Source: Candidatus Thalassarchaeum betae (GTDB lineage Archaea > Thermoplasmatota > Poseidoniia > Poseidoniales > Thalassarchaeaceae). Taken from it: a stretch of 64,000 bases of DNA. Below, in pieces: positions 2,247 through 42,881 of this stretch. Positions within the stretch are counted from its first letter, which is position 1. Each line of letters opens with the position of its first letter. Position numbers and translations under genes: made by a program. Under the pieces are notes generated by a model, which was not told where the DNA came from, did no database searches, and was given only the letters and a program-made list of their open reading frames with translations. The stretch lies in assembly GCA_022447095.1 (NCBI GenBank), contig JAKUUP010000005.1, forward strand, positions 2,065 to 66,064. Reading direction: 5' to 3'.

Positions 2247-4646
2247 GTGCGCCGAGCGTCCGCCAGCCTGCTAATCGCCCTGCTGCTGGTCAGCGCAGCT
2301 CCATTGGCACAGGCCGACTCCAAGGGAGTCATCTCCTGTCTCAACGCAGATCTCACGATGATGCCTGCCAACTGGGATATCGGAAATCAATCCTGCGTCC
2401 GCGTCGACCTCGGAGAACTGGAGCCCGGCGAGACGCTGTCGTTCGACATCACCTCCGACGAACTCATCGACATCCTGCTCTTCTCGGTCAACTCGATTTC
2501 CGTCTACCAGAACGAGCAGGCCTACAGGAGCAACTCAATCTGGGAGAGCGACTCCGTCTTCGAGAGTTTCAACGGCACAGGAGAATGGCACTGGACCGTA
2601 CCCGATGACCGTGACATGACCCGCTGGTACCTCGTTCTTGACAACCTCGCGCATCCACAGGACGGGGGCGGAGGGGCTCAGGGTGGAACTGACGCCTCAG
2701 TCAACCTCGACTCAGGAATCGTCTCACCCGCACCATTCACTCTAGTCGACACCATAGTGCGACTCGAAATCGGAGGACACTCGATACTCCACGGTCCATT
2801 CCTCGTCGACGCAGGCACACAGGTCAGAATCGACGCGACGACGATGGAAGGGGCTCCGGACGTCTTCCTGATGACAGAGTCCCAAGTGGCCCTTTACGAG
2901 GCCGGCGGCACCGCGGCCTCTCGCGTAGAGGGCACCGACATGCTCCTCATCATGACCGAGCGTCACATGGTCTGGCTCGTGCCCGAGACGTACGAGGGCA
3001 CCGATCTCTATCTTGTGGTTGACAACAGGGCAGGTCCGTCAGGAGGCGGCGCCGGGACTCAGGCAATCGCCACCACCGTCACACTCTCACTCACCCCCAT
3101 ACTGGAGCCGACCATCGGAGGAGGAATCTCCCTAGATGTCGTCGACGTGGGAGCCATCATCACCCTAGATGCCTCAGAGACTCCTAACCGCTCCGGCCAG
3201 ATACTCACCTCTGGATTCAAGTGGGACACCAACGCGGACGGTGTCGACGATACTATCGGCTCTACCGTCAACGTCAGTTGGTCAGACCCGACGAACATTA
3301 CCGTCAGACTCACCGTCGTATCCACAGACGGTCGCAGTGCGAGCGTGTATCAGGAAATCGAGGTCAGTGATATCTCCGAACCAGAGGTCAGCATCGGAGT
3401 CACCGCTGTCCTCGAGCGTACCTACGGTGACAACGTCATCCTGAGTGGGCAGGTCAGTGACAACTGGGGAATCGAGACAATCGAGTGGCTCGTCGACGAA
3501 CAACTCGTCCGATCCAATGCCGGAGACGATGAGGGTGCGACAGTATACAGCCACTCATTCGACTCCAGTTATGCGGCTGGGTCCCACACGGTCACCCTCC
3601 GCGCCACTGACCTCTCTGGCAGGGTGGCCGAGGATATCGCCAGCATTACTCTCTACGACTCGACACCTCCAGTGATCGGAATTTTCGTTGACGAGATATC
3701 CCTGCAGATTGGGCAGACATTCCGCTTTGAGGCCAATGTCACTGATGCTGAGTCTAACGACCTTCTCTTCTCTTGGGACTTTGACGACTCGGTCGACTCG
3801 GACGCGGATGGCGACCCTAGGAACGACGCCGACTCCTACGGTGACTCGGTGCTGTGGAGCTATGAGAAATCGGGCCCACAGTCGGTGGTCTGCCACATTG
3901 AGAACGATGCCGGGCTAGTCAGTGAATTCGAGATTCTCGTCAATGTGATGAGCGGCTCCGAAGACGATGGCGACTACGACCTGATGACCATGGGCATGAT
4001 TGGCCTTGCAGCCCTCATCGGCTTGCTTCTCATCGCGATGCTGTCTTGGCGAATCATCTCCAACCGCAGGCTGGCCACTCTTGTAGCACAGCAGGAGGAG
4101 ACCGAGGAAGCACCCACGACCGCTCCATCGGCGGACGAGCAGAAGGCGATGTGGGGCGGAGGGGGCGGCACGGGCGTATCAGTCCCAGAGTCAACCCCTC
4201 AGATTTTCGGCGACGTCTCCGGCGGGATGTCAGGGGTCACCGCTGATATTTCAACAGCGATGGGGGAGCCCGAGGGAGGCGAGATAGACCCCGACATCGC
4301 GGCACTGCTGGAGTCGGCTAGGCAGTCAGAGTCGGAACCTGCTTCCGGTGCCGCCAACGATTTGCTGTCCGCCTTTGAGAGCGACGACACCGTCGAGAGG
4401 GAAGATGTCGAGTTCTCGCACGAAGGAAGAACCGAGGAGGAAACCTCGACATGGGCTCCTGGTGAGGAAGGGGGAGATGTCTTCCAACCGGCCGATGAAA
4501 CGGAGCCCGAGGCGCAGGACCGGACCGTTCGCCAGAACTGCTCATCATGCGAGAAAATGTTCGAAGTCGATCTGCCGGAGGGCGTCGATGCCGCTAGAAC
4601 CGCATGCCCGCATTGCGACTCGATAGAATCGATCAGCCTCGACTGA
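2247..4646 (+). CDS. Large secreted acidic surface protein (type-I membrane topology) with a cytoplasmic C-terminal C4 zinc-ribbon tail
   Basis: Signal peptide MRRASASLLIALLLVSAAPLAQA; ~570-aa acidic ectodomain with Ig/PKD-like beta-rich segments; a single TM (LMTMGMIGLAALIGLLLIAMLSW); ~200-aa acidic tail ending NCSSCEK...ACPHCDS (CxxC-18-CxxC). Confidence 0.7.
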   Translation: MRRASASLLIALLLVSAAPLAQADSKGVISCLNADLTMMPANWDIGNQSCVRVDLGELEPGETLSFDITSDELIDILLFSVNSISVYQNEQAYRSNSIWESDSVFESFNGTGEWHWTVPDDRDMTRWYLVLDNLAHPQDGGGGAQGGTDASVNLDSGIVSPAPFTLVDTIVRLEIGGHSILHGPFLVDAGTQVRIDATTMEGAPDVFLMTESQVALYEAGGTAASRVEGTDMLLIMTERHMVWLVPETYEGTDLYLVVDNRAGPSGGGAGTQAIATTVTLSLTPILEPTIGGGISLDVVDVGAIITLDASETPNRSGQILTSGFKWDTNADGVDDTIGSTVNVSWSDPTNITVRLTVVSTDGRSASVYQEIEVSDISEPEVSIGVTAVLERTYGDNVILSGQVSDNWGIETIEWLVDEQLVRSNAGDDEGATVYSHSFDSSYAAGSHTVTLRATDLSGRVAEDIASITLYDSTPPVIGIFVDEISLQIGQTFRFEANVTDAESNDLLFSWDFDDSVDSDADGDPRNDADSYGDSVLWSYEKSGPQSVVCHIENDAGLVSEFEILVNVMSGSEDDGDYDLMTMGMIGLAALIGLLLIAMLSWRIISNRRLATLVAQQEETEEAPTTAPSADEQKAMWGGGGGTGVSVPESTPQIFGDVSGGMSGVTADISTAMGEPEGGEIDPDIAALLESARQSESEPASGAANDLLSAFESDDTVEREDVEFSHEGRTEEETSTWAPGEEGGDVFQPADETEPEAQDRTVRQNCSSCEKMFEVDLPEGVDAARTACPHCDSIESISLD

Positions 4647-4700
4647 TCCCCTAGTCTACAAACGATGCAGAGGACGTTCCTGTAGGGCAATACCCTATAG

Positions 4701-4719
4701 CGCACCTCTAGGAGGTGCG
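4701..4719 (+). promoter_or_regulatory. Hairpin that sequesters the Shine-Dalgarno sequence of the downstream giant gene
   Basis: cgcacctc-tag-gaggtgcg forms a perfect 8-bp stem. Its 3' arm contains GGAGGTG (a strong SD) 4-10 nt upstream of ATG 4723. Confidence 0.3.
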
Positions 4720-4722
4720 AGC

Positions 4723-7700
4723 ATGACCAGCACCTCTGTACGGCTCGTGCATCGAGCTCCTTCGGTGTCTCATTCACATACCCTAATGATGGTCCTACTC
4801 TTCCTATTCCCCGTCGTTTCACCAATCGCCAGCGTCAGCGGTGAGGCTAGAATAGAATCGCAGGACTTTGAGATTCTAGATCGACTATCGGAAGTATTGG
4901 AGGAGCGACAGGAGGTTCTGGATGGCAACTCCGTTGGGCAGATGGCCGGTCCGACAATCGAAGGCATCAGCAACTCAGTCACTCCTACCGGCTCGGCCGA
5001 TCCCCTCGCAGATGTCGATGGCGCTATCGAAGGGGCGACGATGGTGGTCACGAGACCCCCGGATCCAGTACACCCCGGTCCTTACCAACTCCTCGTCAAT
5101 CCCGGCAATAGTCCTCCCGGACAGGTGGATAACATATGGCAGACTCTGCTGAATATTACCGACTACGTAATCTGGACTCAGTACACCAACCTCGACGGCG
5201 ATGTCATCGAGAGTTTCGAGGTCGTCACATTTTCCTCCAATCTACTGTCGCTCTTGGATGTCAACTCAGATCCGCTTCTGCACGAAGTCGATATCGACAA
5301 CGACGGCGACGAAGACATCGAGGTCGGCCTCAAAATCGCATGGGAGTTCCTTGGCGGCTGGGGTGTCGAAGATGGGGTGCTTTGGATTGAGCCGGGGATA
5401 TCCTACTCGGTCAAGGTTCTGGACTCAAGCCAGAACGACCCAGACTGGGATAACATGGACAAACTCCAGGTCTCCTTGATCAAAGCCTTCGCCTATTCCG
5501 GACCGGACTCCATCCTCGCACTGGGAGAGGGGGAGACCTACATCTGGGTCGTTGATTCCCGATTCACGACCCAGCCCAACGATTTCACACTGAGGGTAGG
5601 GATAGAGAGATTCTACTTCGACGTCACAGGCGCTGGGTCGGACCTCATAGTCACGTTAATCCAGGCCCTTACACTCGGCATCATCAACTCGGGCGTCGAT
5701 GAGTCTGGAATCACTTTCGCATCGATTTCCGCCCCTTATGCCATAGGAATCAGCAATGACGGACAGTCAACCTGCCCCGACCGATACTCGCCGGACGAAC
5801 TGCTGTACGCCTCACACCTAGAACTGAACTGCGGCGTTGCCGCAGGCTTCGGGTACCTACACTTCTCACCACCCGATGACAGTGGAGACAGAGACATGTG
5901 GGAACTCGCTTACATTGAACTCTCACTACACCCCAACAAGGATGCAGTCATACTCCCCGAACAGGTAGAAATCGTCATCAGGACTGATAGTGTTCTGCCA
6001 GAGAATGGATTGGTCGACGGAGAAGATGGTCTGGACACTATCGAGTACTGGGCTGACGAGAGGACTGATCTCCATATCCACTTCCACGAGAACCGTTCTG
6101 AACTCCCTCCAGAGGAGTCCGCAGAAGGTGCTCGAGGCAATGTCACTGACTCCGTCGGCTGGCTACGCGGGATGCCCGCTGGGTCTCTGTCCGAGGGCGA
6201 GATCCAGAGAGTTTTCACGATGCTGGGTTCCGATGGATCGCAGTCGGAATTGCCCGGTGATCTGCCAGAGCGCCTAGGCCTGATTATCGGAATCAAAAAC
6301 TTCTCTCGCGACGACAGTCAGAATGTCAACGACCCAACATTGCCAGTTAATCCGGCCAATCCTCCGAAGACGCTTATTCTACTACGTTCCGTCCAATCCG
6401 TCGAGGAGGTTGATTACGACTCGTGGTTCCTCCGCGAGGGTGCCGTCGACGATCACAGGAAGATCCACATCTCGGCGAGGAACGTGCCTACGGCTGCGGT
6501 CTTATACGGCTCCTTCGAACTGGGAGGCAGCGACGAGGTCGAAACGAGTTTTGATTCGGAGGAAAGTCTGGACTTCGTATCGAAGATTGTGGACAACGTC
6601 CTGATTAACATAGTCGATTTGTTCCTAGACATCGGCAACGTGCTGAATGATGTCCCTTCGGCCGTAGTCGATGTCATCAGCGGCGGTGTCGATGGCACCA
6701 GCGGTCTTGAGGGACGCTCTTTTCACCTCCTGCTCAACGACAACTGGCTCGTCACCCGATCTGACATGCCAATCGACTACATTTCAGTTCAGATAGGCTC
6801 CAGCACCCATCCGGTCTTGCCCGGCGACCATCTGATGCTGGCTAAGGACAACGACCTCGCTACGGTCGATGGCCGCGATGGTCCCGTAGAGCCGCTGGTT
6901 CCGGTAGCGGCCAGCATCAGATTCAGCGGACTGATCGCATTCTCGTTAGTCGATGACAACGATCTCGACGAGCAAACCGTGACACTCCGAACGTCATCGG
7001 ACGAGTCGTTCGGATTCACCTACATCGAACATCCTCCGACTATACTCGAAGGAGCCTCCTACCAATCGCTGATCATGAGTGACATACCCGACAATCTCTC
7101 CACTCACATCACCCCCGAGAGAATGCAATACACGGCCTCGACCGGCATCGATTCAATCGTCTACGCCGGCCTAGATGGAACCCAGCGCCAAGCCGCGCAT
7201 ATCATTGGAGTTCCAGACAGTTTCACCACAACCTTCGGCACAGTAACCGGCTGGTCCTCCCTCACACCGATATCAACCATTGAGGCCCAAGTCAGCAACG
7301 CTTCCGAGCCGGTGACCATGACCGGTGACCACTTCCTGTTTCACCACGACCCGGTCTCCGAGACTTCGACAATCTCGACTAGGCTGACAGGTCTCAGTGA
7401 GGTCAGTTGGACAGCTCCCGACGAGGAAGGCGCTACCGGTCCAGCGGGCCGCGGCACCGCCCATATGTCAGTGGCCGGAGACAGACAACTGAGCATCAGT
7501 GTCGATCATGCACCCACACAAGGCGACGACGCACTATCTGTGCTCGCATCCATCGATCCGCTCCCTTCCTCGGTATCGGTCGAGATACCCACGGGGGCAG
7601 ACGCTGAATCAGCACTCGCAGTCCCAGAGTTCAACACATCCAATGGACTGTCTGGGGTCGCTTTCTTCATCAGTGGGTTCGCCAACCTCGGCCGCTCTGT

Positions 7701-9111
7701 CAACAGCGTCCTCTCAGGGATCACCTCAGACATATCCACGGGTGCCGAGTCCGAGGACGATGGCTTCTCCTTCGGTATCAAATTGAACGCTGACGCCGCT
7801 TTTGATCTCACAGTCGAGGCCATCCATGGAGATAGTTCTGTAGATGCTCCCCCGTGGGTCCACGGCATAGCGTTTCAATCATCACCCAACGGCATAGCAG
7901 ATGGCTTCCACCTCAGGACATGGCTGCCTAACTTGCCTCCGACCATCGACCTCTCAGTCAGCAGAGCACCCAACTTCAACGGTCAGGACTGGGCAATCAG
8001 CATGGGACTCGAGGATTGGGTGCCCGCGCACAGCGAGTTGATGATTCACGCATATGGAATCAACGGCCAGGATATGTTGCTCACTCTACAGGGCCTGAAT
8101 GTGGGTGAGCCAACTTCGCTGCTCATCGATTCGATATTTGAGATTAGGACGACAGGCGGTATCACAGAGGTTGGGACTACGACCCACTACTGGATGTCCA
8201 ATCGACTTGATTGGGTTCACGCCCTATTGATCAACAGGGAAGCCGGCAGTAGAACTGAGATTATGATACATGATATCCCAGAGGCAGTCGACCTGCAGTC
8301 CAGCATCGGAACCGCGGTATCGCTCGACATGACGGTGCCCGAAGAATATCGGCGTGATGGCACCGCAGTAGGGGCCATCATGCTGCAGCAGATGCAGTGG
8401 ATGGAGGATGCCTGGTGGCCTGCGACAGTCTTCCTAACCGATGTGCCCGGTTCGATCAGCCTATCGACGGCACCTGACCTGACTTTCGACATCACGCAGA
8501 ACATAGCCTTCCAAGGATCGCCAGTCCTCGACTTCACGGCCTCCGATGAAGGCATGTCCCTCTACATCGAGGCTTTCGGAAGGGCCATCAACAAGAAGGG
8601 CGACACCATATTACTGGCTCAGGGAATGACCGATAGGATGGAAATCGGTCCTACCAGTGACTTTGGTCTGACCATCAGATCAAGTGGCGAGGGCGTGGAA
8701 AGACTCTATCTCCGTATGAGCAACGTCCCAGCGACTCCGCCCATCGTCCTCGACGAGATGGAGGCCATGGGGGAGAACCTGCGGAAGGCCACCATACACG
8801 TCAGGGAGATTGTAGGACAGTACAGCATCATTGAGGTCGATGACGTGCAGGGCGGGAGAATCATCGCCTCGGCTCGAGCGTCTGCTCAAGTCGAAGGCAC
8901 CGACTGGGACCTCCGAGGTGTTCTACTGGACGCTCAGATAACCGGAGGAGTCCCGACGGGAACCACCCTCGGCGTGAATGGCATGGCTTCCGACTTGTCA
9001 CTATTGAACATGGTTCCGGGACTTGACGGCTCCACGAAGCACGTGATGGTGCCCGAACCTTTCTCCTCTGCGATTCTGACTTTGCTGGCGACTCTACTGG
9101 GGGGTACCTGA
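4723..9111 (+). CDS. Giant (1462-aa) secreted acidic surface protein with a hydrophobic C-terminal anchor preceded by a PEP motif
   Basis: N-terminal hydrophobic signal/anchor (LMMVLLFLFPVVSPIASVSG); very acidic, Asp/Ser/Thr-rich body; C-terminus VPEPFSSAILTLLATLLGGT, which resembles PEP/PEF-CTERM sorting signals. SD GGAGGTG lies upstream. Confidence 0.7.
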   Translation: MTSTSVRLVHRAPSVSHSHTLMMVLLFLFPVVSPIASVSGEARIESQDFEILDRLSEVLEERQEVLDGNSVGQMAGPTIEGISNSVTPTGSADPLADVDGAIEGATMVVTRPPDPVHPGPYQLLVNPGNSPPGQVDNIWQTLLNITDYVIWTQYTNLDGDVIESFEVVTFSSNLLSLLDVNSDPLLHEVDIDNDGDEDIEVGLKIAWEFLGGWGVEDGVLWIEPGISYSVKVLDSSQNDPDWDNMDKLQVSLIKAFAYSGPDSILALGEGETYIWVVDSRFTTQPNDFTLRVGIERFYFDVTGAGSDLIVTLIQALTLGIINSGVDESGITFASISAPYAIGISNDGQSTCPDRYSPDELLYASHLELNCGVAAGFGYLHFSPPDDSGDRDMWELAYIELSLHPNKDAVILPEQVEIVIRTDSVLPENGLVDGEDGLDTIEYWADERTDLHIHFHENRSELPPEESAEGARGNVTDSVGWLRGMPAGSLSEGEIQRVFTMLGSDGSQSELPGDLPERLGLIIGIKNFSRDDSQNVNDPTLPVNPANPPKTLILLRSVQSVEEVDYDSWFLREGAVDDHRKIHISARNVPTAAVLYGSFELGGSDEVETSFDSEESLDFVSKIVDNVLINIVDLFLDIGNVLNDVPSAVVDVISGGVDGTSGLEGRSFHLLLNDNWLVTRSDMPIDYISVQIGSSTHPVLPGDHLMLAKDNDLATVDGRDGPVEPLVPVAASIRFSGLIAFSLVDDNDLDEQTVTLRTSSDESFGFTYIEHPPTILEGASYQSLIMSDIPDNLSTHITPERMQYTASTGIDSIVYAGLDGTQRQAAHIIGVPDSFTTTFGTVTGWSSLTPISTIEAQVSNASEPVTMTGDHFLFHHDPVSETSTISTRLTGLSEVSWTAPDEEGATGPAGRGTAHMSVAGDRQLSISVDHAPTQGDDALSVLASIDPLPSSVSVEIPTGADAESALAVPEFNTSNGLSGVAFFISGFANLGRSVNSVLSGITSDISTGAESEDDGFSFGIKLNADAAFDLTVEAIHGDSSVDAPPWVHGIAFQSSPNGIADGFHLRTWLPNLPPTIDLSVSRAPNFNGQDWAISMGLEDWVPAHSELMIHAYGINGQDMLLTLQGLNVGEPTSLLIDSIFEIRTTGGITEVGTTTHYWMSNRLDWVHALLINREAGSRTEIMIHDIPEAVDLQSSIGTAVSLDMTVPEEYRRDGTAVGAIMLQQMQWMEDAWWPATVFLTDVPGSISLSTAPDLTFDITQNIAFQGSPVLDFTASDEGMSLYIEAFGRAINKKGDTILLAQGMTDRMEIGPTSDFGLTIRSSGEGVERLYLRMSNVPATPPIVLDEMEAMGENLRKATIHVREIVGQYSIIEVDDVQGGRIIASARASAQVEGTDWDLRGVLLDAQITGGVPTGTTLGVNGMASDLSLLNMVPGLDGSTKHVMVPEPFSSAILTLLATLLGGT

Positions 9112-9112
9112 A

Positions 9113-9694
9113 ATGGGTCTGCTGGAGAGATTGAGGCAAGATGGGAGTAATGAGGAGGAAGACGAGAGAATCGCTCATGATGTGCTGGAAAAAATCGAGG
9201 AAGGTGCTAAGGAAATCGAGGAACGTGCTAGGAGACACATCTCACCGACCAGAGTAATCTTCGCTTCAATCGCAGCCATTCTTCTGCTCGCTACGAGCCT
9301 GTTCGTTTTGACGTGGTTAGTCCCGTACGACAGGGTCAGCGTCGATGTGGTGTATCGTCAGGGTGGTCCCGGACACGTCGTGCTGGTAGAACTGGACAAC
9401 AAGGGCAGCAGGACGATCGAGGACATCAATCTGCACATCAGGTTCATTGATTCGAATGGTATCGAAGTCGATCGATCAATTTTCAATAAGGAGTCCTTGC
9501 CGGCGCATACCTCAGTCGCAGGGGACGACCTCGAGCTGCTCGTCAACGGGACTTCGGTATGGGAGAATTACACAATCGAGATACTGCTGAACTACGAGTA
9601 CTATGGAGGCGATCGCTCCGAGCGTTGGACCCACGATGTAGGAGAGTGGACGATGGAGATGTTCGTCGACAAGTCGCCGTACCGCTTCCTCTGA
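9113..9694 (+). CDS. Small bitopic membrane protein, translationally coupled to the giant gene
   Basis: Starts 2 nt after the upstream stop codon. Acidic N-terminus, one TM (VIFASIAAILLLATSLFVLTWLV), and a beta-rich C-terminal domain. Confidence 0.5.
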   Translation: MGLLERLRQDGSNEEEDERIAHDVLEKIEEGAKEIEERARRHISPTRVIFASIAAILLLATSLFVLTWLVPYDRVSVDVVYRQGGPGHVVLVELDNKGSRTIEDINLHIRFIDSNGIEVDRSIFNKESLPAHTSVAGDDLELLVNGTSVWENYTIEILLNYEYYGGDRSERWTHDVGEWTMEMFVDKSPYRFL

Positions 9695-9744
9695 GCAGTA
9701 TCAAGCATGACTATTGATGGGTTCAAAGAACCCATACGCTCAAA

Positions 9745-12700
9745 TTGGTTACGAGAAGGCGAGAGCCGATGACAAAGCGTTCAGTCTCAGTCGTGATGGC
9801 GGTTTTGTTACTTTCATACCTGCCTATTCTCGACCAGTCATCGTCCTATGAAAACTCCCCCGAAGAGGGCTTGGCACTGGATTCCGCAGTGGAGAGAATA
9901 GAGATATCTCCAGACCCTAACAGCATCCAGAACCTTGGCGCTCCAAACATCTACTCGGGCTATGAGGACATCCGTTCCCTCCGTGCTGACTCAACGATTG
10001 GAGTCTACACCGGGGCCGGACTCCTTCCCGGTGTCGCGATGAGCTCTAAATTGGCCGAGACGCGCTCCGATCTGGCTATCGTCCTAGTCGATGGTGAGGC
10101 CGGCCTCTGGGATGCCAGACAGGAGATCCTAGATGCAGTCGAAGTCGAGATAAGGTCTACCATCCCACCATCGGGATTCCTCGTCCAAGGTTCCCCCGGA
10201 CAACTCGCTGAGTTGACTCGCATCTCCGTGGTCAGCGCCGTACACGATGTCCCAGCCGGACTGTTGGTGCACCCGATGTTCTGGGAGGCTAATGGAGATG
10301 AGACCATCCTCGTTGAGGTACTCGGCTGGAAGGACTCCGAACTCATTCGTCACAGCGAGCCCGGACTAGGCTTGGACGACTCGCTCAGCATCGCTGCCTC
10401 GCTATGGCTCGAAGAGGCATGGTCGCCCGAGCAAGGTAGGATTTGGGGTGAGATTGGTATCAGCGATATCTCTCAGATTGTCAGGCATCCATCGGTGGCT
10501 TACGTGGCACCGCTGCCATTGCTGATGCTACATAACGACGAGGCCCGTGACCACATGGGAATCAACACCGTGGATAACACCTTCATCACCGGGCTAAACG
10601 GCAGCGGACAGAAGATAGCCGTAGGCGACTCCGGACTCGACAACGATCATGGTGACTTCACCGGTAGAGTCTCGGGGCTGACATCTGTCACTCCAGGCGA
10701 CTCATCCACCGCAGATCCTTCTGACGGGCACGGAACTCACGTTGCCTGCACCGTCCTCGGTGATGGCTACCGCAGTAGTGGGACCTACCAAGGAATCGCT
10801 CCAGAGGCCCTGCTTTACTTCCAGGCGATGGAGGATGACGACACCGGAGCCCTCTACAGTTATGGCATCAACAGCATGCTTAACTCGGCCTACAACAACG
10901 GTGCTCGCTTACACACCAACAGTTGGGGCGCAGGCAGTGGTTCAGGCAGCTACTCAACTCAGTCCGAGGACGCCGACGACCGCACCTCTACCTGGGACCA
11001 GTACTGGTCTTACCAAGGGATGACGGTGTTGTTCGCCGCTGGTAACGAGGGCAACGACGGGGTCTCCCCTCCAGGCACCGCGAAGAACGTCATCACCATC
11101 GGCGCCCATCAGAACCGATACAGCGGCGCTCCGGACGATATGTACTACTGGAGCAGCCGCGGACCGACCGACGATGGCAGGATCAAGCCGGATCTGGTCG
11201 CCCCGGGAGAATACGTTCGCTCTTGTAAGGCTCAGGAGGCGCAGGACGCAGAAGGCTCTTGGAGCAACAACTGGTATCTTGAATATACAGGGACATCGAT
11301 GGCAACGCCAGCAGCGGCCGGTGCCGCCGTCCTCGTCAGAGAGTACCTGATGGAGGTCGCTGGCAGACAGGCCCCTCAGAGTGCCCTCGTCAAGGGACTG
11401 CTAATCCTAGGTGCCATGGACATGGGCACCCGGGACATCCCCAACAACAACGAGGGTTGGGGAAGGGTCAATCTGGTCGACTCGCTAATTCCAGACAACG
11501 ATGTCGGCATATTCGTGGATGACCGCTCACGCCTCTCCAGCGGGCAGGTGAGCGAGTACACCTTCGACGTCACCCGCGCCGGCGAGCCGATGAAGGTGGT
11601 TCTGACTTGGTCCGACTACCCCGGCTCTTCATCCTCCTCAAGCCAACTCAGAAACGACCTCGACCTAGAGGTGATTTCGCCTAACGGGCAGGTCACATAC
11701 AAGGGGAACGCCTTCGTCAACGGCCACTCAGTCACTGGCGGTACCAAGGACTCCACCAACAACGTAGAAGTCGTCCTGATGGATAACGCCGCGACCGGCA
11801 CGTGGACAGTCCGCGTGCGCGATGCGCAGCATGGTGGTGGGCGTACATGGCAACCCTACGCGCTCGCAGTCCGTGGAGTGAACGTGAACGACCTGACCCC
11901 CGACCCAGCATTCGTACAGAACTCATTCGAGATTACCTCTGCGATTCCACAGGTCGGCGAGGAGGTCGATGTCACTGTGACTGTTCAGAACCTAGGTGCC
12001 GGTTCCGTAGCCGAAGTCGCTGTGATTGCAAGAGCCGACAGTGAACTACTCGGTACTCAAACTCTGAGCATGTCCCCAGGAGAGTCTGCCGAGTTGTCTT
12101 GGAACTGGACCCCCGACCATGAGGGAGAGGTGGAGTTCACTTTCCACATCGACCCGAGCGATACGGTAGAGGAGACCTCGGAATCGAACAACTACTTGTC
12201 ACAGACGGTGGTGGTCAGCGCACCTGGGGTTCGCGTTACCACCGAGCAGGACACCATGACGCTGGCAGATGCGACCGACAGTTCGACGACTTGGGAGTTG
12301 TTCCTGATGAACACGGCTCTGTTTGAGACCAACGCCTCCATTGTCGTCACCGATCCCGTGCGAGTACAGGACGGCGTCGAGTTCGACTGGTTCACATCTT
12401 TCACCTCGAATACCTTCAACCTCGAAGCCGCCGAGATGACAACCATTGGCCTGACGGTAGTCCATCCGGCCCCACCTCCGCCCGGCCTCTATCGGATGGT
12501 GGTGACCGGGACCGACATTGAGAACGATATCGATTCTGAACTGATGCTCTACTTCGAGGTCCCGATACTGGCTGAGGCCGACATAGTCCTCCCCGGAGAG
12601 CAGTTCCTAGTCAGTCCACTCGAGCCGACAGATCTCCAGATACTGGTCTTCAACGATGGCAACGGTGCTCAGGCCTACGATGTCGAACTCGTCTCCCCTG

Positions 12701-14271
12701 CTGGCTGGCACCTCGGTCTAGATACTCTCGGGGCCTTCGCAGGCTCCTCGCACGGCTCCACAGGCACGCTCGCAAAGGACGCCGGCCGGGCCGTTGACAT
12801 CACAATCAACCCACCGGGCGCGATGATTCCAGCCGACTCTGTCTACGACGCGGCCATCATAGTCCACTCTCGTGTAAGCTCCGACTCCTGGAGTGCAGAC
12901 ATCCAATTAGTCGTCAAGGTGATAGACCAAGTCAGTACCACTCCCTCATCAGATGGCATTGAGCATGACATCGCACCTGATGCTCTTCTGGAGTTTGAGA
13001 TTGAGTTCAACAACCAAGGCAACCGCTTGATAGTCTTCCAACCTTATGTGAGGAGCATTCCTGGTGGCTGGGAAGTCTTAGGCGGTCTGTACCCAGCCCA
13101 CGTCCCAGCCGGTGAGACAGCAGTTTGGCCGGTCTCCCTGCAAGGCAACGGTGTAGCGGTCAGCGGCGATCTTCAATTGAGGTTCGCGACCGAGGACGGC
13201 TACTACGTGGATTGGAACAGGACCTTGGACGTTCTATCCGGAGCCATGCCGACTTTGGATTTCCACCTTGTCGCCCTCCCGGATGGAACCACCGCCGATT
13301 ACCCGCTTGGAGTGCCCGCTCATCCAGTCGGGGCACCGGGGTTCGATCTCGGTTGGACGGTTACCAACGAAGGCTCCACCACATGGCGTCCTATGACCTA
13401 CATGGAAGTGCCTAACGATGATTGGTCTTCGACGTGCGTCGGTCCATCCACCCTCTCCGCCGGTGCCACTTCTACGGTCTGGTGCACCGTCGTCATCCCA
13501 CTGTCAGCCGAAGCCAACTCCGAGCCGATTGTGACTCTGGTAATGGAGGGCGAGGGAGTTGAGGTGAGTGACTCAATCTCGCTGTTGGTCGAGTCCGTAG
13601 CCCGAGTGAGTTGGACCGTCACCAACCAGCAGGTCGCACATGAGGGCTACGAGACCGTGCTCTACCTCGACCTTCAGAATGTCGGCAACTCGGATATCGC
13701 CCATGTCCTGCAAGCCTCTGGTCCGGATGATTGGAACGCACTGATTCTCGATGGGGTGGTTGTCAATCTGCGCCCTGGCGAGACGCGCAATCTCCAACTC
13801 GGATTCACACCCAACACTGGGGTGGATGGAACACTAGTGGTGGAACTCGGTGATTCCAACGATATCGAGGACTCCACCTTCACCATAGAGATCGACGTGC
13901 TGCCAGCGAGGATAGAGGAGGGCATGTCCGCTCTCGAGATGGTACTTGTTGCAACCCTCATCCTCGCCTTCGCCGGAGGAGTCGGATTCTTCGTTTACTC
14001 TAGGACTGGAGCCGATAAGGCCAGTCTGATCAAAACTGAGACACTCAGCAAGATTGCGGACAGCTTCGGGCTTGCCGAGGAGGAGAGAGTGGAGGGCAGC
14101 GGCGTTCCCTGCTGGATATGCAGCCAAGACATCGTCCTCGGCGGGGCGTGGGCTTGCTCTGAGTGCGGAGCGAGGTATCACAAGGGTGGCCAGGTCGATG
14201 GCTGTGACATCGTTTCGATGGGACACTGCATGCACTGCGATGCCGACGTGGACGGGCTTGTAGAAGCGTGA
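9745..14271 (+). CDS. Membrane-anchored subtilisin-like serine protease (peptidase S8) with beta-sandwich repeat domains and a cytoplasmic Cys/His-rich zinc-binding tail
   Basis: Signal peptide. Catalytic triad motifs in order: Asp (AVGDSGLDNDHGDF), His (DGHGTHVACTVLGDG), Ser (GTSMATPAAAGAAVLV). Post-catalytic VLTWSDYPG...NDLDLEV beta-sandwich. CARDB-like repeats, TM (LEMVLVATLILAFAGGVGFFVY), and a tail with CWIC, CSEC, C-x7-CMHC. Confidence 0.85.
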   Translation: MVTRRREPMTKRSVSVVMAVLLLSYLPILDQSSSYENSPEEGLALDSAVERIEISPDPNSIQNLGAPNIYSGYEDIRSLRADSTIGVYTGAGLLPGVAMSSKLAETRSDLAIVLVDGEAGLWDARQEILDAVEVEIRSTIPPSGFLVQGSPGQLAELTRISVVSAVHDVPAGLLVHPMFWEANGDETILVEVLGWKDSELIRHSEPGLGLDDSLSIAASLWLEEAWSPEQGRIWGEIGISDISQIVRHPSVAYVAPLPLLMLHNDEARDHMGINTVDNTFITGLNGSGQKIAVGDSGLDNDHGDFTGRVSGLTSVTPGDSSTADPSDGHGTHVACTVLGDGYRSSGTYQGIAPEALLYFQAMEDDDTGALYSYGINSMLNSAYNNGARLHTNSWGAGSGSGSYSTQSEDADDRTSTWDQYWSYQGMTVLFAAGNEGNDGVSPPGTAKNVITIGAHQNRYSGAPDDMYYWSSRGPTDDGRIKPDLVAPGEYVRSCKAQEAQDAEGSWSNNWYLEYTGTSMATPAAAGAAVLVREYLMEVAGRQAPQSALVKGLLILGAMDMGTRDIPNNNEGWGRVNLVDSLIPDNDVGIFVDDRSRLSSGQVSEYTFDVTRAGEPMKVVLTWSDYPGSSSSSSQLRNDLDLEVISPNGQVTYKGNAFVNGHSVTGGTKDSTNNVEVVLMDNAATGTWTVRVRDAQHGGGRTWQPYALAVRGVNVNDLTPDPAFVQNSFEITSAIPQVGEEVDVTVTVQNLGAGSVAEVAVIARADSELLGTQTLSMSPGESAELSWNWTPDHEGEVEFTFHIDPSDTVEETSESNNYLSQTVVVSAPGVRVTTEQDTMTLADATDSSTTWELFLMNTALFETNASIVVTDPVRVQDGVEFDWFTSFTSNTFNLEAAEMTTIGLTVVHPAPPPPGLYRMVVTGTDIENDIDSELMLYFEVPILAEADIVLPGEQFLVSPLEPTDLQILVFNDGNGAQAYDVELVSPAGWHLGLDTLGAFAGSSHGSTGTLAKDAGRAVDITINPPGAMIPADSVYDAAIIVHSRVSSDSWSADIQLVVKVIDQVSTTPSSDGIEHDIAPDALLEFEIEFNNQGNRLIVFQPYVRSIPGGWEVLGGLYPAHVPAGETAVWPVSLQGNGVAVSGDLQLRFATEDGYYVDWNRTLDVLSGAMPTLDFHLVALPDGTTADYPLGVPAHPVGAPGFDLGWTVTNEGSTTWRPMTYMEVPNDDWSSTCVGPSTLSAGATSTVWCTVVIPLSAEANSEPIVTLVMEGEGVEVSDSISLLVESVARVSWTVTNQQVAHEGYETVLYLDLQNVGNSDIAHVLQASGPDDWNALILDGVVVNLRPGETRNLQLGFTPNTGVDGTLVVELGDSNDIEDSTFTIEIDVLPARIEEGMSALEMVLVATLILAFAGGVGFFVYSRTGADKASLIKTETLSKIADSFGLAEEERVEGSGVPCWICSQDIVLGGAWACSECGARYHKGGQVDGCDIVSMGHCMHCDADVDGLVEA

Positions 14272-14277
14272 TTGAAC

Positions 14278-14297
14278 CGCGACCCTAAGGGGTCGCG
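14278..14297 (+). terminator. Perfect hairpin (8-bp stem cgcgaccc/gggtcgcg, loop taag) 7 nt after the subtilase stop
   Basis: Inverted repeat seen directly in the 67-nt intergenic spacer. Confidence 0.35.
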
Positions 14298-14338
14298 ATG
14301 CCCGAAGTCCTTAGAGGGGCGATTGAGTCGGAGCGACG

Positions 14339-17035
14339 ATGAAGCGTGATTCATCGGCCTCTGTGCTGACGGCTTTGCTGCTATTGACTATCATGTCACC
14401 ACTAGCCACCGCTGCAGTCTCAGTGTCGCTTTCTGCGAGTCCGACGGCCCAAGAGGCCACCACCGATGACGATGCAGAGTACGACATCATCGTGACTAAC
14501 GACGGCGATGAGGATATCTCGGTCACTTTGAGCACCCAGCAGGGTAACGACTGTAACGGCTTTTCATCCTCTTTGGACTCCTATCAGGTCTCAGTCGATG
14601 AGGGGACATCTGAGACGGTCGTACTGACTGTCTCTGTGAATGACCAGGCAGACGGTGACTGCGAGACCACCGTAAACGCTCAGGCTACAGCAGGTATCGG
14701 ATCGCCGGCCAACGACGATGTTACGGTAACCACGACTGCTGGTGACGGAGGCGGCCTATACTCGGTGAAACTCACTACCGACGAGCAGATGAAGACCTAC
14801 GGGGGCGAGGATAGCGATGAGGGCGATAGCGTTGCCTGGGATGTCGAAGTGGAGAACAATGGCGAGCAGCAGGCCAACGTCCAACTCGAGATGATATCAG
14901 ACAGCGATTGCGAGTCCGACACCCTCGATGCCACTGTGGATCCACAGGTCCTGCAGTTGGAGCCGGAGGACAAAGAGACCGTCGAGGTCACAGTCGAAGT
15001 TCCTGACGGTAGTTCCACCGAGGCAGGAGACCACTGCTTCATCCTCAGAGCAACGGTGACCAACGACCCTAACGCAGCAGATCAGGCTGAGGACAATATC
15101 ACACTCACTCTGAAGATTCCTGAGCGCAAGGAGTGCGACCCGAACCTCCAGTACACCTCACACAACCTCGACCCCGATGAATCTGCGACCAATTCCTTTG
15201 AGGTCGAGAATATCGGCAACACCGAGTGGACGGTGACGGCAAACGCCCAAGCCCATGATTCGGACCACGACATAACTGACTGGATAGACTTCAACAGCCC
15301 ACTCAGCAAACTGCTCTCCGAGCCCGGAGGCTCTCAGGACGGCCATACGTTCACCTTCTCAGTCACCCCTGACGACTCGGTCGAGTCGGGAACCCAAGTG
15401 GGTATCAGGATACAGGGGCGTGCTGGTACCGCTGTGGGCTGCGAGCAAACGCTCACTGTCACCGTGGGCCAGAGCCACGCCGCTACTATGACCCTGAGCA
15501 AGAACAAACTCTCAAACGTCGAACCAGGGAGCTCAGAAACGGTTTCGGTTCAGATAACCAACCTCGGCAACGGGATGGAAACTCTCTCAGTAGGCGCCAC
15601 AGGACTGCCTCCTGGCTGGCAGATATCCTTCTCCCAGAATTCGGTCACCGTAGGAAGCGTGCACTCCGGCAACAACAGGCAGACCATCAACGCCGAGGTC
15701 TTCGTGCCCGAGGATGCCAGCGCCGAGGATGAGACGGTGATCACCTTCACAGTCGGACGCGGCGGCGGCACCACTCCTTACGACACCAAGGACCTCACAG
15801 TTTCCGTCGCTGCCCGACATGACCTGACCACTTCGATCCTGTCGACCCAGCAGACGGGCCGCTCAGGGCAGACGGTGCAGTTCCCAATAGATGTCACCAA
15901 CTCGGGTAACATCCGTGACACCTTCAAACTCCTGACTTGCGACCCAGGTGACCAGACTGGATGCAACCAGCCGATGTGGGAATCATCCTACTCCGATAGT
16001 CAGGGCAACACGATCACGCAGGTAATCCTTGACCCCAGTCAGACTCAGACAGTGTACCTCGACATCCTCGTCGAGGGTGAGGAGGAGGCCGATTCAGCGA
16101 ACGTGCTCGCTCGAATCGCGATATACGGTACAACTGTAGTGGACGAGCATACTGTGAGCGTAATAGTCTCAAACTACAACTACGCCATGGCGATCACTGC
16201 GCAGAATCCTGGTGATATCCCTGATCAGATTGATGCTACTCTCCCACCAGGAGGCACCCTGACCACTGCATTCTGGGTCGAGAATACCGGTGATTACCCC
16301 GGTGGCGATACTGCCGTGATATCATTGAGCGGCATGGAGTCGTCAGTACTGCGGACAATTACCGTTGAGGGGGTGGAGATCGAGAGTACACTCTCTCTGG
16401 GAATGGGCGAGAGAGTGCTCATTGAAGTAGAGATAGAGATTCTCGATGGCGTGGCGAATGGCGTTTCTGGGGTAGTAAAAGTCAGCGCTTCATCAGAGAA
16501 GAACACTGCCCAGAGCACCTCAGTCGACCTGATTGTCGCAGTCATGACCATCCATGATCTCAGATTCACCCTTGAGGGAGAGGACGAGCAGACCGCAGAG
16601 TATCCAGACAAGGCCATCTTCATCTTGTATGTCACCAATCACGGCAACATACTCGAGACAGTACAGGTCCTGTCCAGTGAGTCACTCAGGGGTTGGTCGG
16701 TCGATGTGGTAGGTGAGGAGTTTGAACTTGAATCGGGGGAGACTCGGGAAGTCGAAGTGAGAGTCACTCCACCTAGCGATTTGCTTGATGATGACACCTA
16801 TCTTTTCACTCTGACCGTGCAGCCGGAAGACCTTGCTGTGGCAGGTCAGCCAATTGACCTGACAGTGATATCGGAGATGCCATCGTCGTTCATCGGCTTG
16901 ACTGAGGAGCAGGCTCAGGCACTGGTCTACGGCTCCATCATTCTCGGTGGGATTCTGGTCGTCGTCCTGTTCTTTCGTTCCCGCGCTGAAAATCGCAGAA
17001 TCGTGGAAGCGCTCGAAAATGAGTTCGAAGACTAG
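14339..17035 (+). CDS. Secreted cell-surface protein built from ~8 CARDB-like (NxGN) beta-sandwich modules, with a C-terminal TM anchor
   Basis: Signal peptide MKRDSSASVLTALLLLTIMSPLATAAV. Recurrent motifs VTNDGDEDI, VENNGEQQA, VENIGNTEW, ITNLGNGMET, VTNSGNIRDT, VENTGDYPG, VTNHGNILET. C-terminal TM (LVYGSIILGGILVVVLFF) and a short tail. Confidence 0.75.
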   Translation: MKRDSSASVLTALLLLTIMSPLATAAVSVSLSASPTAQEATTDDDAEYDIIVTNDGDEDISVTLSTQQGNDCNGFSSSLDSYQVSVDEGTSETVVLTVSVNDQADGDCETTVNAQATAGIGSPANDDVTVTTTAGDGGGLYSVKLTTDEQMKTYGGEDSDEGDSVAWDVEVENNGEQQANVQLEMISDSDCESDTLDATVDPQVLQLEPEDKETVEVTVEVPDGSSTEAGDHCFILRATVTNDPNAADQAEDNITLTLKIPERKECDPNLQYTSHNLDPDESATNSFEVENIGNTEWTVTANAQAHDSDHDITDWIDFNSPLSKLLSEPGGSQDGHTFTFSVTPDDSVESGTQVGIRIQGRAGTAVGCEQTLTVTVGQSHAATMTLSKNKLSNVEPGSSETVSVQITNLGNGMETLSVGATGLPPGWQISFSQNSVTVGSVHSGNNRQTINAEVFVPEDASAEDETVITFTVGRGGGTTPYDTKDLTVSVAARHDLTTSILSTQQTGRSGQTVQFPIDVTNSGNIRDTFKLLTCDPGDQTGCNQPMWESSYSDSQGNTITQVILDPSQTQTVYLDILVEGEEEADSANVLARIAIYGTTVVDEHTVSVIVSNYNYAMAITAQNPGDIPDQIDATLPPGGTLTTAFWVENTGDYPGGDTAVISLSGMESSVLRTITVEGVEIESTLSLGMGERVLIEVEIEILDGVANGVSGVVKVSASSEKNTAQSTSVDLIVAVMTIHDLRFTLEGEDEQTAEYPDKAIFILYVTNHGNILETVQVLSSESLRGWSVDVVGEEFELESGETREVEVRVTPPSDLLDDDTYLFTLTVQPEDLAVAGQPIDLTVISEMPSSFIGLTEEQAQALVYGSIILGGILVVVLFFRSRAENRRIVEALENEFED

Positions 17036-42261: not shown

Positions 42262-42881
42262 GACAGGCTGCCCAGCAGATTCTCCAGATCCTCGTGCAAA
42301 CCCTCGACGGTGCCTTCGTTTATCAGTATCAGGTCAGCCATCTCCGCAGTTGCGACAAGGGCCTGACCGGCTTCATCGCTAGCCACCTCCTCGGACTCCT
42401 CCTGCGCCACGAAGGTCGCTCTGTCCGCAGGGTCCCCTAGACGAGCCCGGCTCTGCGAGCGTGTCCATCGCGAATCGGCGCCAGCCGTGACTTCGATGAG
42501 GATGAAATCATCACGAGCCCGCAGCGCCTCGACCTCGCCGGGCGTGCGGATCGAGTCGATGACCGCATCCTCGCCTCCGAGAGCCTCCAGCAGCATCTCA
42601 GCGAGTATGCCAGGTCCTCCACGGCGCCGCAACTCTCTACCGCCTTCGATTAGCGCCTCGCGACTCTCCTCGATGCCCTGTTCAGCAAGCCAGGCGCGAA
42701 TCGAGTCCGAACATGAAACCGTTCGAATCCCTCTGCCAGCGAACCACTGCACTACCGTGGTCTTCCCTGAGGCGTTTCGCCCAGTCAATCCGACCAACAC
42801 AACCCACACCGCGGGTCGAACGCGCATAGGGATTGCGTCATGACCAGTATTGCCGCGTTCTAGCATACTGTAGTTCAGCAT
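42258..42881 (-). CDS. P-loop nucleotide/nucleoside kinase (dephospho-CoA kinase / NMP kinase-like)
   Basis: VLVGLTGRNASGKTTV Walker A. The start is more likely at MRVRPAVW (42827). Confidence 0.5.
   Translation of the reverse strand: MLNYSMLERGNTGHDAIPMRVRPAVWVVLVGLTGRNASGKTTVVQWFAGRGIRTVSCSDSIRAWLAEQGIEESREALIEGGRELRRRGGPGILAEMLLEALGGEDAVIDSIRTPGEVEALRARDDFILIEVTAGADSRWTRSQSRARLGDPADRATFVAQEESEEVASDEAGQALVATAEMADLILINEGTVEGLHEDLENLLGSLS

Follow-up and report, generated by a model that had tools for sequence, protein, structure and literature searches.

Two bacterial membrane proteins are the closest described parallels to the system considered here. In Caulobacter crescentus, ZitP (CC_2215) carries an N-terminal cytoplasmic zinc ribbon (Pfam zinc_ribbon_5) that binds the PopZ scaffold directly, and residues 1-43 of ZitP suffice for polar localisation (PMC5182065). 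In Myxococcus xanthus, the ribbon of GltJ is structurally similar to that of ZitP and binds a motif in GltJ's own 95-residue linker; binding of MglA-GTP to this linker motif frees the ribbon, which then recruits MglB (PMC11135422). We analyzed a stretch of 64,000 nucleotides from the archaeon Candidatus Thalassarchaeum betae (contig JAKUUP010000005.1; hereafter, the window), in which the first of five consecutive surface-protein genes encodes a 799-residue predicted type I membrane protein. This protein, which we call the PKD-ZnR protein, has a PKD-containing ectodomain, one transmembrane (TM) helix and a long acidic tail that ends in a strictly conserved C4 zinc ribbon.

The gene and its parts are listed below. 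The tail features refer to an alignment of 19 diverse tails (alignment A1) and to an AlphaFold2 (AF2) model computed with this alignment as input, whose local confidence is expressed as pLDDT (predicted local distance difference test). Hydropathy is on the Kyte-Doolittle (KD) scale.

2247..4646, + strand: whole gene of the PKD-ZnR protein (799-residue type I membrane protein), GTG start and TGA stop, from the list of open reading frames
2247..2315, + strand: Sec-type signal peptide, residues 1-23, with an RR n-region, a hydrophobic core (KD 1.83), an A-x-A motif and cleavage after AQA
2316..3116, + strand: conserved N-terminal ectodomain, residues 24-~290, the best-conserved block (identity 0.7-0.8 across 71 orthologues)
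3117..3980, + strand: immunoglobulin-like (Ig-like)/PKD region of about three domains plus a short acidic stalk (Pfam PKD_4, 1.5e-08)
3981..4049, + strand: single TM helix, residues 579-601, LMTMGMIGLAALIGLLLIAMLSW (KD 19-mer mean 2.39)
4050..4118, + strand: juxtamembrane basic/helical segment RIISNRRLATLVAQQEE (alignment A1), with N609 invariant and an AF2 helix at tail residues 3-24 of moderate pLDDT
4119..4517, + strand: predicted intrinsically disordered acidic linker, with pLDDT <50 between six conserved short motifs
4137-4160, + strand: linker motif EQKAMWGG (alignment A1, as for the five motifs that follow)
4209-4235, + strand: linker motif GDVSGGMSG
4281-4316, + strand: linker motif EIDPDIAALLES
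4356-4388, + strand: linker motif NDLLSAFESDD
4407-4421, + strand: linker motif VEFSH
4452-4460, + strand: linker motif WAP
4518..4643, + strand: C-terminal C4 zinc ribbon, residues 758-799, DRTVRQN-C765SSC768-EKMFEVDLPEGVDAARTA-C787PHC790-DSIESISLD (invariant cysteines, pLDDT 89-94)

The cysteines of the ribbon lie exactly where the original prediction had placed them: the codon of C765 starts at nucleotide 4539 and that of C790 ends at nucleotide 4616. In 200,000 shuffles of the protein, the pattern CxxC-x10-30-CxxC appeared four times anywhere and never within the last 45 residues. Among the 120 best database homologues, 118 keep C-x2-C-x18-C-x2-C with identical spacing, and the other two end before the ribbon. 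The same exact spacing is found in 70 of the 71 complete orthologues from species-representative genomes, where the exception runs off a 2.4-kb contig. Very divergent members of the family, reached only by the tail profile at E ~1e-5, still keep the ribbon, and it stands at the extreme C-terminus in every orthologue. The conservation of the four cysteines, on which the original prediction depended, is thus borne out.

Conservation of the ribbon extends beyond its metal ligands. In alignment A1, R, V, S, F, E, P, G and P are invariant in addition to the four cysteines, and the block has the consensus DRTVRQxCSxCxxxFEVxLPxGxDxARTxCPxCGSIE. Across the 71 orthologues, the identity of the ribbon block (0.68-0.73) equals that of the best ectodomain blocks (0.70-0.80), while linker blocks have 0.27-0.53 and the TM helix 0.25. 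The ratio of nonsynonymous to synonymous substitution rates (dN/dS, by the Nei-Gojobori method) is 0.03-0.13 for the ribbon, versus 0.09-0.15 for the ectodomain; it is 0.09-0.38 for the linker and 0.29-0.80 for the TM helix. Purifying selection on the ribbon is strong, equal to or stronger than that on the ectodomain. An open reading frame on the opposite strand (4199-4825, 208 residues) overlaps the tail, and we treated it as a shadow of the gene because substitutions in the + frame are rich in synonymous changes: 17 of the 41 ribbon codons differ synonymously from the L002 orthologue, and three residues change.

The original prediction had also proposed modelling the tail. The result is a predicted four-stranded zinc ribbon at the end of an otherwise disordered chain with short helices. 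AF2 is confident for the last ~40 residues only (pLDDT 89-94), and the predicted template modelling score (pTM) of the whole tail is 0.26. The strands of the ribbon fall at tail residues 163-167, 174-178, 185-189 and 196-200, and the cysteine pattern and the model together contain the features of a zinc-ribbon fold, i.e., two CxxC knuckles at beta-hairpin turns and an antiparallel sheet of 3-4 strands.

Residues 579-601 are the sole strong hydrophobic segment after the signal peptide, and the helix is identically placed in all homologues (KD 2.3-3.5), its sequence varying as noted above. It is followed directly by RIISNRR, which by the positive-inside rule places the 198-residue C-terminal tail in the cytoplasm. 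The topology predicted from the sequence is therefore an extracellular N-terminal part of ~555 residues and a cytoplasmic C-terminal part of 198 residues. The anatomy first proposed for this protein, a type I surface protein with a single TM helix, a long acidic tail and a terminal C4 ribbon, proved correct in view of the signal peptide, the one hydrophobic segment and RIISNRR; the TM prediction, which might have failed, holds at the KD mean given above.

The linker between helix and ribbon consists of conserved islands in a variable background. Its invariant columns in alignment A1 are Q, K, A, M, G-M-x-G, L and L..F, and the family consensus runs from the juxtamembrane xRxxSNRRxAxLLAEQ through [VA][ED]EQKAMWGG, FGxxSSGMSG, EIDPDxAELL and S.A.[DE]LLSAF.DD to VEYSH and W.P. 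Short AF2 helices occur at the EQKAMW, DPDIAALLESARQ and NDLLSAF islands, separated by segments with pLDDT <50. Conserved islands that coincide with short predicted helices in a disordered tail are the usual signature of binding motifs, and the model suggests such a role here. Some of the motifs resemble eukaryotic acidic di-leucine signals or the C-terminal peptide of the archaeal ribosomal stalk; we set these resemblances aside because chance matches to many such patterns are expected of short acidic-hydrophobic helices. Ahead of the ribbon there is an insertion hot-spot, where 0-80 Pro/Glu-rich residues are found depending on the lineage. Aspartate and glutamate make up 22.6% of the tail, compared with 13.4% in the 50 genes of the window and 16.8% in the protein's own ectodomain, and the net charge of the tail is -34. 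However, the acidity of the linker is not itself conserved: distant orthologues are Q/S/T-rich or A/P-rich, and what persists is the remnants of the motifs and the ribbon.

We compared the ribbon to known zinc-ribbon families. None of the curated families in Pfam or NCBIfam reaches its cutoff for the ribbon of the window. The best Pfam match is Zn_ribbon_8 (PF09723; 22.7 bits versus a cutoff of 34.4), and further sub-threshold matches are to TIGR02605 FmdB CxxC_CxxC_SSSS (17.1 versus 31.3 bits), Zn_ribbon_Nudix (20 versus 25.6) and, over part of the model only, Zn_ribbon_4 (PF13717; 15.3 versus 30.3), Zn_ribbon_5 (PF13719; 14.1 versus 29.3) and TIGR02098 MJ0042_CXXC (15.5 versus 20.9). The best member of the ribbon-only alignment (A3) gave E 1.5e-05 for Zn_ribbon_4 and 2.6e-05 for Zn_ribbon_5. 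A few orthologues carry a precomputed PF09723 match, and annotation pipelines already label some of them "zinc ribbon domain-containing" (NCBI) or "PKD domain-containing". Because such labels exist and TM-adjacent zinc ribbons are common in prokaryotes, the mere existence of the ribbon domain is not new. In a Foldseek search of the PDB, the modelled ribbon matched the zinc finger of ZitP first (NMR structure 2nb9; TM-score 0.62 normalised by the target, root-mean-square deviation 2.4 Å over 41 columns, 22% identity, E 1.7), followed by N-terminal zinc ribbons of MCM proteins, with all E-values above 1, as expected for a domain of 40 residues. A sequence search of the PDB with the ribbon returned generic CxxC matches only (DnaJ, RpoP, eS27), which we discarded. 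Since the ribbon lies under the threshold of every curated ribbon family tested, we did not place it in the ZitP/MJ0042 family, and we describe its modelled likeness to ZitP as a resemblance, not a demonstrated membership. In anatomy, the PKD-ZnR protein has what characterizes the ZitP/GltJ class, namely a bitopic protein with a cytoplasmic ribbon on a flexible linker (pLDDT <50), in inverted orientation.

Homologues of the PKD-ZnR protein number more than 640 in the databases, and all of them come from Marine Group II (MGII)/Poseidoniales or from "Thermoplasmatota" metagenome bins. When we took one genome per species of Poseidoniales, we recovered 80 loci with an orthologue. The best genomic match is Candidatus Thalassarchaeum betae, with a tail 92% identical and flanking genes 94-99%. 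One recovered contig (L030; PAHZ01000001.1), deposited as part of a "Chloroflexota bacterium" metagenome-assembled genome, carries a complete archaeal L15e/PKD-ZnR/subtilase operon and is probably mis-binned Poseidoniales.

When 1.84 billion representative proteins were searched with a whole-tail profile, 81 hits were obtained, nearly all of them fragments or full-length members of the PKD-ZnR family. Two hits (P0225 and P0249) were rejected as compositional or repeat false positives. The only different architecture is that of P0238 (1552 residues; an M14-carboxypeptidase surface protein encoded at L081:1233-5891) and P0240 (1427 residues), both archaeal proteins that combine an ectodomain of the M14 carboxypeptidase type with Ig-like domains and a TM helix. 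On the cytoplasmic side, the tails contain 3-4 tandem ribbons of the form VSCPxCxSxFDVELPxxDKxTVKTMCIECGEIFSFDR plus one further terminal ribbon, and P0238 has faint precomputed Zn_ribbon_5 matches. These ribbons have the core C-x2-C-x3-F-[DE]-V-x-L-P in common with the MGII ribbon. Given these two proteins, the theme of a large archaeal ectoenzyme with one TM helix and one or more cytoplasmic ribbons recurs in at least one unrelated family. A ribbon-only profile (A3), searched against an index of 5.8 billion proteins, yielded six short fragments only, as the word index is ineffective for a query of 45 residues; this search therefore gives no census of other architectures. Within the window, the only other gene with a similar pattern (CxxC-x17-CxxC, residues 876-900) encodes an Lhr-type DEAD/DEAH helicase of 993 residues (42838-45819, - strand), which lacks a TM helix and bears no relation to the surface-protein theme.

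The extracellular part of the protein is partly of a recognized type. The signal peptide, read directly off the sequence, is MRRASASLLIALLLVSAAPLAQA|DSKG. The N-terminal ectodomain has the motifs YQNEQxYRS, WHWTVP, RWYxVxDNxAHPQD and GAQGG and the invariant cysteines C31 and C50; it has zero matches in Pfam or NCBIfam, and its fold was not recognized. The only Pfam domains in the ectodomain are PKD/Ig-like. PKD_4 scores 35 bits against a cutoff of 27, as expected for a PKD-domain surface protein, and the PKD and Big_7 profiles fall slightly under their cutoffs.

The PKD-ZnR gene heads an operon-like block that spans 2247-17035. The other members of the block and the genes ahead of it are:

202-789: ribosomal protein L15e, an archaeal marker; the block is always downstream of it
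809-1093: PRC-barrel protein of 94 residues, between the L15e gene and the MBL-fold gene, also present in the divergent lineages L082 and L083
4723..9111, + strand: operon gene 2, a secreted or surface protein of 1462 residues, directly downstream of the PKD-ZnR gene in all loci
9113..9694, + strand: operon gene 3, a bitopic protein of 193 residues with a TM helix at residues 43-61, a charged cytoplasmic N-terminus of 42 residues and an outside domain of ~130 residues
9745..14271, + strand: operon gene 4, a membrane-anchored S8 subtilase of 1508 residues (Pfam Peptidase_S8 1e-42, CARDB 3e-19)
14095..14268, + strand: predicted C4HC3 RING-like finger of the subtilase, C-x2-C-x11-C-x2-C-x4-H-x7-C-x7-C-x2-C, with invariant CGARYH
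14339..17035, + strand: operon gene 5, an Ig-like repeat surface protein of 898 residues with a C-terminal TM helix and a 20-residue tail RSRAENRRIVEALENEFED

In every locus that is long enough, the order of genes is L15e, (PRC-barrel), MBL-fold, PKD-ZnR, the ~1460-residue protein, the bitopic protein of ~190 residues, the S8 subtilase of ~1500 residues and the Ig-repeat protein. This synteny holds across ~80 species genomes of Poseidoniales and extends to two lineages that are very divergent (L082 and L083); downstream of the block, the window has a complex I (nuo) operon. The genes are closely spaced, and in all loci gene 2 abuts or overlaps gene 3. Judging by gene spacing and synteny only, the five genes are probably co-expressed. 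The PKD-ZnR protein is a core, order-wide envelope protein of MGII archaea, and the five-gene block is a candidate for their core envelope complex or S-layer complex. Because it is syntenic in every genome examined, we also consider the operon a good candidate for a core machine of envelope and protein degradation.

The 1462-residue protein has no recognizable domain and no match in Pfam or NCBIfam. Its C-terminus (9040-9108) reads EPFSSAILTLLATLLGG[DST], is weakly hydrophobic, lacks a basic tail and is conserved in ~60 orthologues, with the consensus EPFSSxxLTxxATxxGG[DST] or, more broadly, [VP]EP[FVIL][ST]S[AG]xxTxxATxxGG[DST]. This end looks like a C-terminal anchoring or sorting signal. 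We rejected an archaeosortase-type signal (PGF-/PEF-CTERM) for it, as there is no NCBIfam match and the terminal GG[DST] is acidic or neutral, not basic. The 193-residue protein has a weak match to the FxLYD domain. The 898-residue protein matches the NCBIfam model choice-of-anchor T (81.6 bits; cutoff 70), the Pfam Ig-like domains NEW3 and FixG_C and, below threshold, a PACE-CTERM "putative S-layer protein" model; its 20-residue tail has no cysteine. A juxtamembrane NRR[IL] motif is common to this tail and to that of the PKD-ZnR protein (SNRRLATL).

Haloarchaeal PRC-barrel proteins act in FtsZ-based division, and the PRC-barrel gene two genes upstream was considered as an envelope partner. 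We dropped it, because such genes commonly adjoin genes for translation and RNA processing, which is its context here (L15e, MBL-fold), and its link to the envelope operon is unsupported.

A second zinc module is predicted on the cytoplasmic side of the subtilase. This protease has a signal peptide, a P-domain, CARDB and Ig-like domains, a TM helix at about nucleotides 13939-14007 and a cytoplasmic tail, and it is syntenic in all loci long enough. Its tail ends in a finger with the consensus SG[IV]PCW[IV]CSxDxxxGxAWACxxCGARYHxxGQVxGCxxxxxGxCxxC[DN]A, whose eight ligands (C4HC3) predict two zinc sites. Of 48 complete orthologues, 47 have this pattern and the 48th has ambiguous bases; divergent lineages keep it with slightly different spacing. 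The finger is modelled by AlphaFold with pLDDT 83-92, and its best Foldseek matches are RING domains (TRIM-type, Ring1b/Bmi1, Rad18, Bre1, IDOL, cIAP1; prob 0.8-0.9, E 0.04-0.3). A profile search of the PDB likewise places RING-H2 proteins first (E ~0.04), and 18 of 25 subtilase orthologues weakly match Pfam Prok-RING_1 (best E 1.7e-4; 13.4 bits for the copy in the window, cutoff 29.1). Combined, these hints point to a RING-like binuclear treble-clef, although none of them is significant alone. In the predicted arrangement, the subtilase is similar to eukaryotic PA-TM-RING E3 ligases (RNF13/GRAIL), type I proteins in which a single TM helix separates a domain in the lumen or outside the cell from a C-terminal two-zinc finger in the cytoplasm. 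However, all its RING-type matches are below significance or gathering thresholds, and its H-x7-C spacing is unlike that of canonical RING or PHD fingers. The operon contains no E1, E2 or ubiquitin-like genes. It had been stated that the subtilase has the same arrangement as the PKD-ZnR protein; this is right for the topology but not for the module, since the subtilase has a short, non-acidic linker of ~45 residues and a finger that is RING-like and not homologous to the ribbon. Of the two modules, the RING-like finger, on the cytoplasmic side of an archaeal protease of the cell surface, may be the more unusual.

What might the ribbon do? By analogy with ZitP and GltJ, we propose that the ribbon and the linker motifs form a docking or assembly adaptor on the cytoplasmic face of the envelope, and we give this reading about an even chance. 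The ribbon and the linear motifs would be sites of protein-protein docking, neither catalytic nor nucleic-acid-binding, that could assemble, cluster or position the envelope complex on its cytoplasmic face. Candidate partners encoded in the operon are the RING-like finger of the subtilase, the charged 42-residue N-terminus of the 193-residue protein and the short tail of the fifth protein; a soluble scaffold might act instead of these or in addition. The mode of working might resemble that of the ribbons of ZitP (binding to the PopZ scaffold) and GltJ (a switch between ribbon and linker), with the opposite orientation. In the original prediction, the tail was taken to be no mere passive anchor. 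This part of it is well supported by the selection on the ribbon, and it gains further from the six conserved motifs and the precedents of ZitP-PopZ (PMC5182065) and GltJ-MglB (PMC11135422).

It is important to consider several points that weigh against docking. No partner of the ribbon tail was identified, and across the syntenic loci, including the divergent lineages, the operon has no conserved gene for a soluble partner. Because the tail-profile hits come nearly all from the PKD-ZnR family, the whole tail belongs to one ectodomain family, which suggests that it co-evolves with its ectodomain and is not a freely shuffled adaptor. The Foldseek match between ZitP and the modelled ribbon lacks statistical significance, and any small zinc ribbon would match others; the likeness in sequence is marginal as well (E 0.12 for 2nb9, and Zn_ribbon_4 and Zn_ribbon_5 under their cutoffs). 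That the four cysteines bind one zinc is something we infer from their pattern and from the model. Finally, conservation alone does not separate docking from a role in folding, stability or biogenesis.

This last point leads to the alternative that survives best, although we still think it rather unlikely. The ribbon could be a compact folded cap that holds the C-terminus in the cytoplasm, where it protects the disordered tail from proteases or sets topology or half-life, or it could serve homo-oligomerization, in either case with no heterologous partner. Its position at the extreme C-terminus of every orthologue fits such a role, and so does the presence of folded zinc modules at the ends of the subtilase and the M14 peptidases, which points to an "end cap" as a general theme of large archaeal surface enzymes. 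However, a cap leaves unexplained both the six conserved linear motifs and the invariance of the non-ligand surface residues R759, V761, F775, E776, P780 and G782. Moreover, the fifth protein of the operon manages with a tail that is short and cysteine-free.

A switch of the GltJ type, in which the ribbon binds a motif in its own linker and a release triggered from the cytoplasm or by the ectodomain couples the state of the surface protein to a cytoplasmic response, is plausible but appears unlikely to us; it corresponds to the inside-out or outside-in coupling suggested in the original prediction. A ribbon on a long, flexible and motif-bearing linker has the same logic as the ZnR-Linker of GltJ (PMC11135422), and the linker motifs are conserved throughout the order. 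Against such transmembrane signalling, the tail has no enzymatic or known output domain, the operon has no kinase, GTPase or response regulator, and a single TM helix whose sequence is so variable (identity 0.25) is badly suited to transmit conformational signals; the low pTM of the tail model (0.26) is insufficient to judge an intramolecular contact.

Zinc ribbons are often nucleic-acid binders or components of ribosomes or RNA polymerase, so the ribbon might instead bind DNA or RNA and tether the chromosome, the operon's mRNA or ribosomes to the membrane. There are weak sequence matches to RpoP, eS27 and TFIIS-type ribbons, and one pipeline named an orthologue "RPC12/RpoP", but these matches are generic CxxC similarities far under family cutoffs. 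The net charge of both the ribbon (-4) and the whole tail (-34) argues against nucleic-acid binding, and we consider a tether very improbable. We think just as little of a metal or redox sensor, in which the four thiolates would respond to the zinc level or oxidative state of the cytoplasm and adjust the envelope complex accordingly. While Cys4 sites can be redox switches and one operon has two predicted Zn-Cys modules, the context contains no genes of metal homeostasis or oxidative stress, and both fold and spacing match a structural ribbon.

Returning to docking, the ribbon tail and the RING-like tail of the subtilase co-occur across the syntenic loci. A more far-reaching and decidedly doubtful proposal is that the two tails jointly form the cytoplasmic face of the principal S-layer-like envelope complex of MGII and couple its adhesin/protease machinery to a cytoplasmic system, for which the division or shape apparatus or a RING-dependent pathway of protein modification or turnover would be candidates. 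If true, such a face would be an archaeal counterpart of focal-adhesion/integrin-type coupling or of the membrane PA-TM-RING ligases.

Marine Group II ranks among the most abundant archaea of the plankton. To our knowledge it has no cultured representative, and we know of no description of how its envelope is built. A limited literature search found nothing relevant on this operon, on zinc ribbons of MGII or on PKD and subtilisin proteins of Poseidoniales. In the same search, we did not find descriptions of a C-terminal ribbon on a type I surface protein, of a long motif-bearing tether, of strict order-wide conservation of such a ribbon, or of its gene leading a five-gene envelope operon in which a subtilase bears a RING-like cytoplasmic finger. 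Two strictly conserved cytoplasmic zinc fingers suggest that the envelope complex has an organized inner face, and a domain of ~40 residues together with six short peptides is a concrete handle for finding what this complex connects to. We regard the finding as solid and as an entry point to MGII envelope biology; its function is inferred, and the class of the domain is familiar.

Comparison to the known systems gives the following picture. Like ZitP, the PKD-ZnR protein is bitopic and has a small cytoplasmic C4 ribbon tied to the TM helix by a flexible linker, and the F-x-V...P...C-x2-C cores look similar. However, ZitP is a bacterial type II protein with an N-terminal ribbon and DUF3426 outside, whereas the MGII ribbon is C-terminal on a type I protein; the linker of ZitP has ~60 residues, whereas that of the MGII protein has ~160 and contains six motifs. 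PopZ, for its part, is an alphaproteobacterial protein. With GltJ, the MGII protein has in common a cytoplasmic ribbon, a long flexible linker with a conserved binding motif, and membership in an envelope-spanning machine, the last two being predicted here. It differs in that the ribbon of GltJ is N-terminal, bacterial and combined with a GYF domain, which the MGII protein lacks. A broader class of proteins that combine a ribbon, a TM helix and an extracytoplasmic domain (zinc_ribbon_2, DZR, Zn_ribbon_8/FmdB and haloarchaeal zinc-finger micro-proteins such as HVO_0758) belongs to the same C4 superfamily. In these generic prokaryotic architectures the ribbon is typically N-terminal, and unlike them, the MGII ribbon is bound to one ectodomain family and one operon. 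If the docking role is true, the principle seen in ZitP and GltJ, a cytoplasmic ribbon that serves as the adaptor of a membrane protein, would extend from bacteria to archaea and to the opposite topology.

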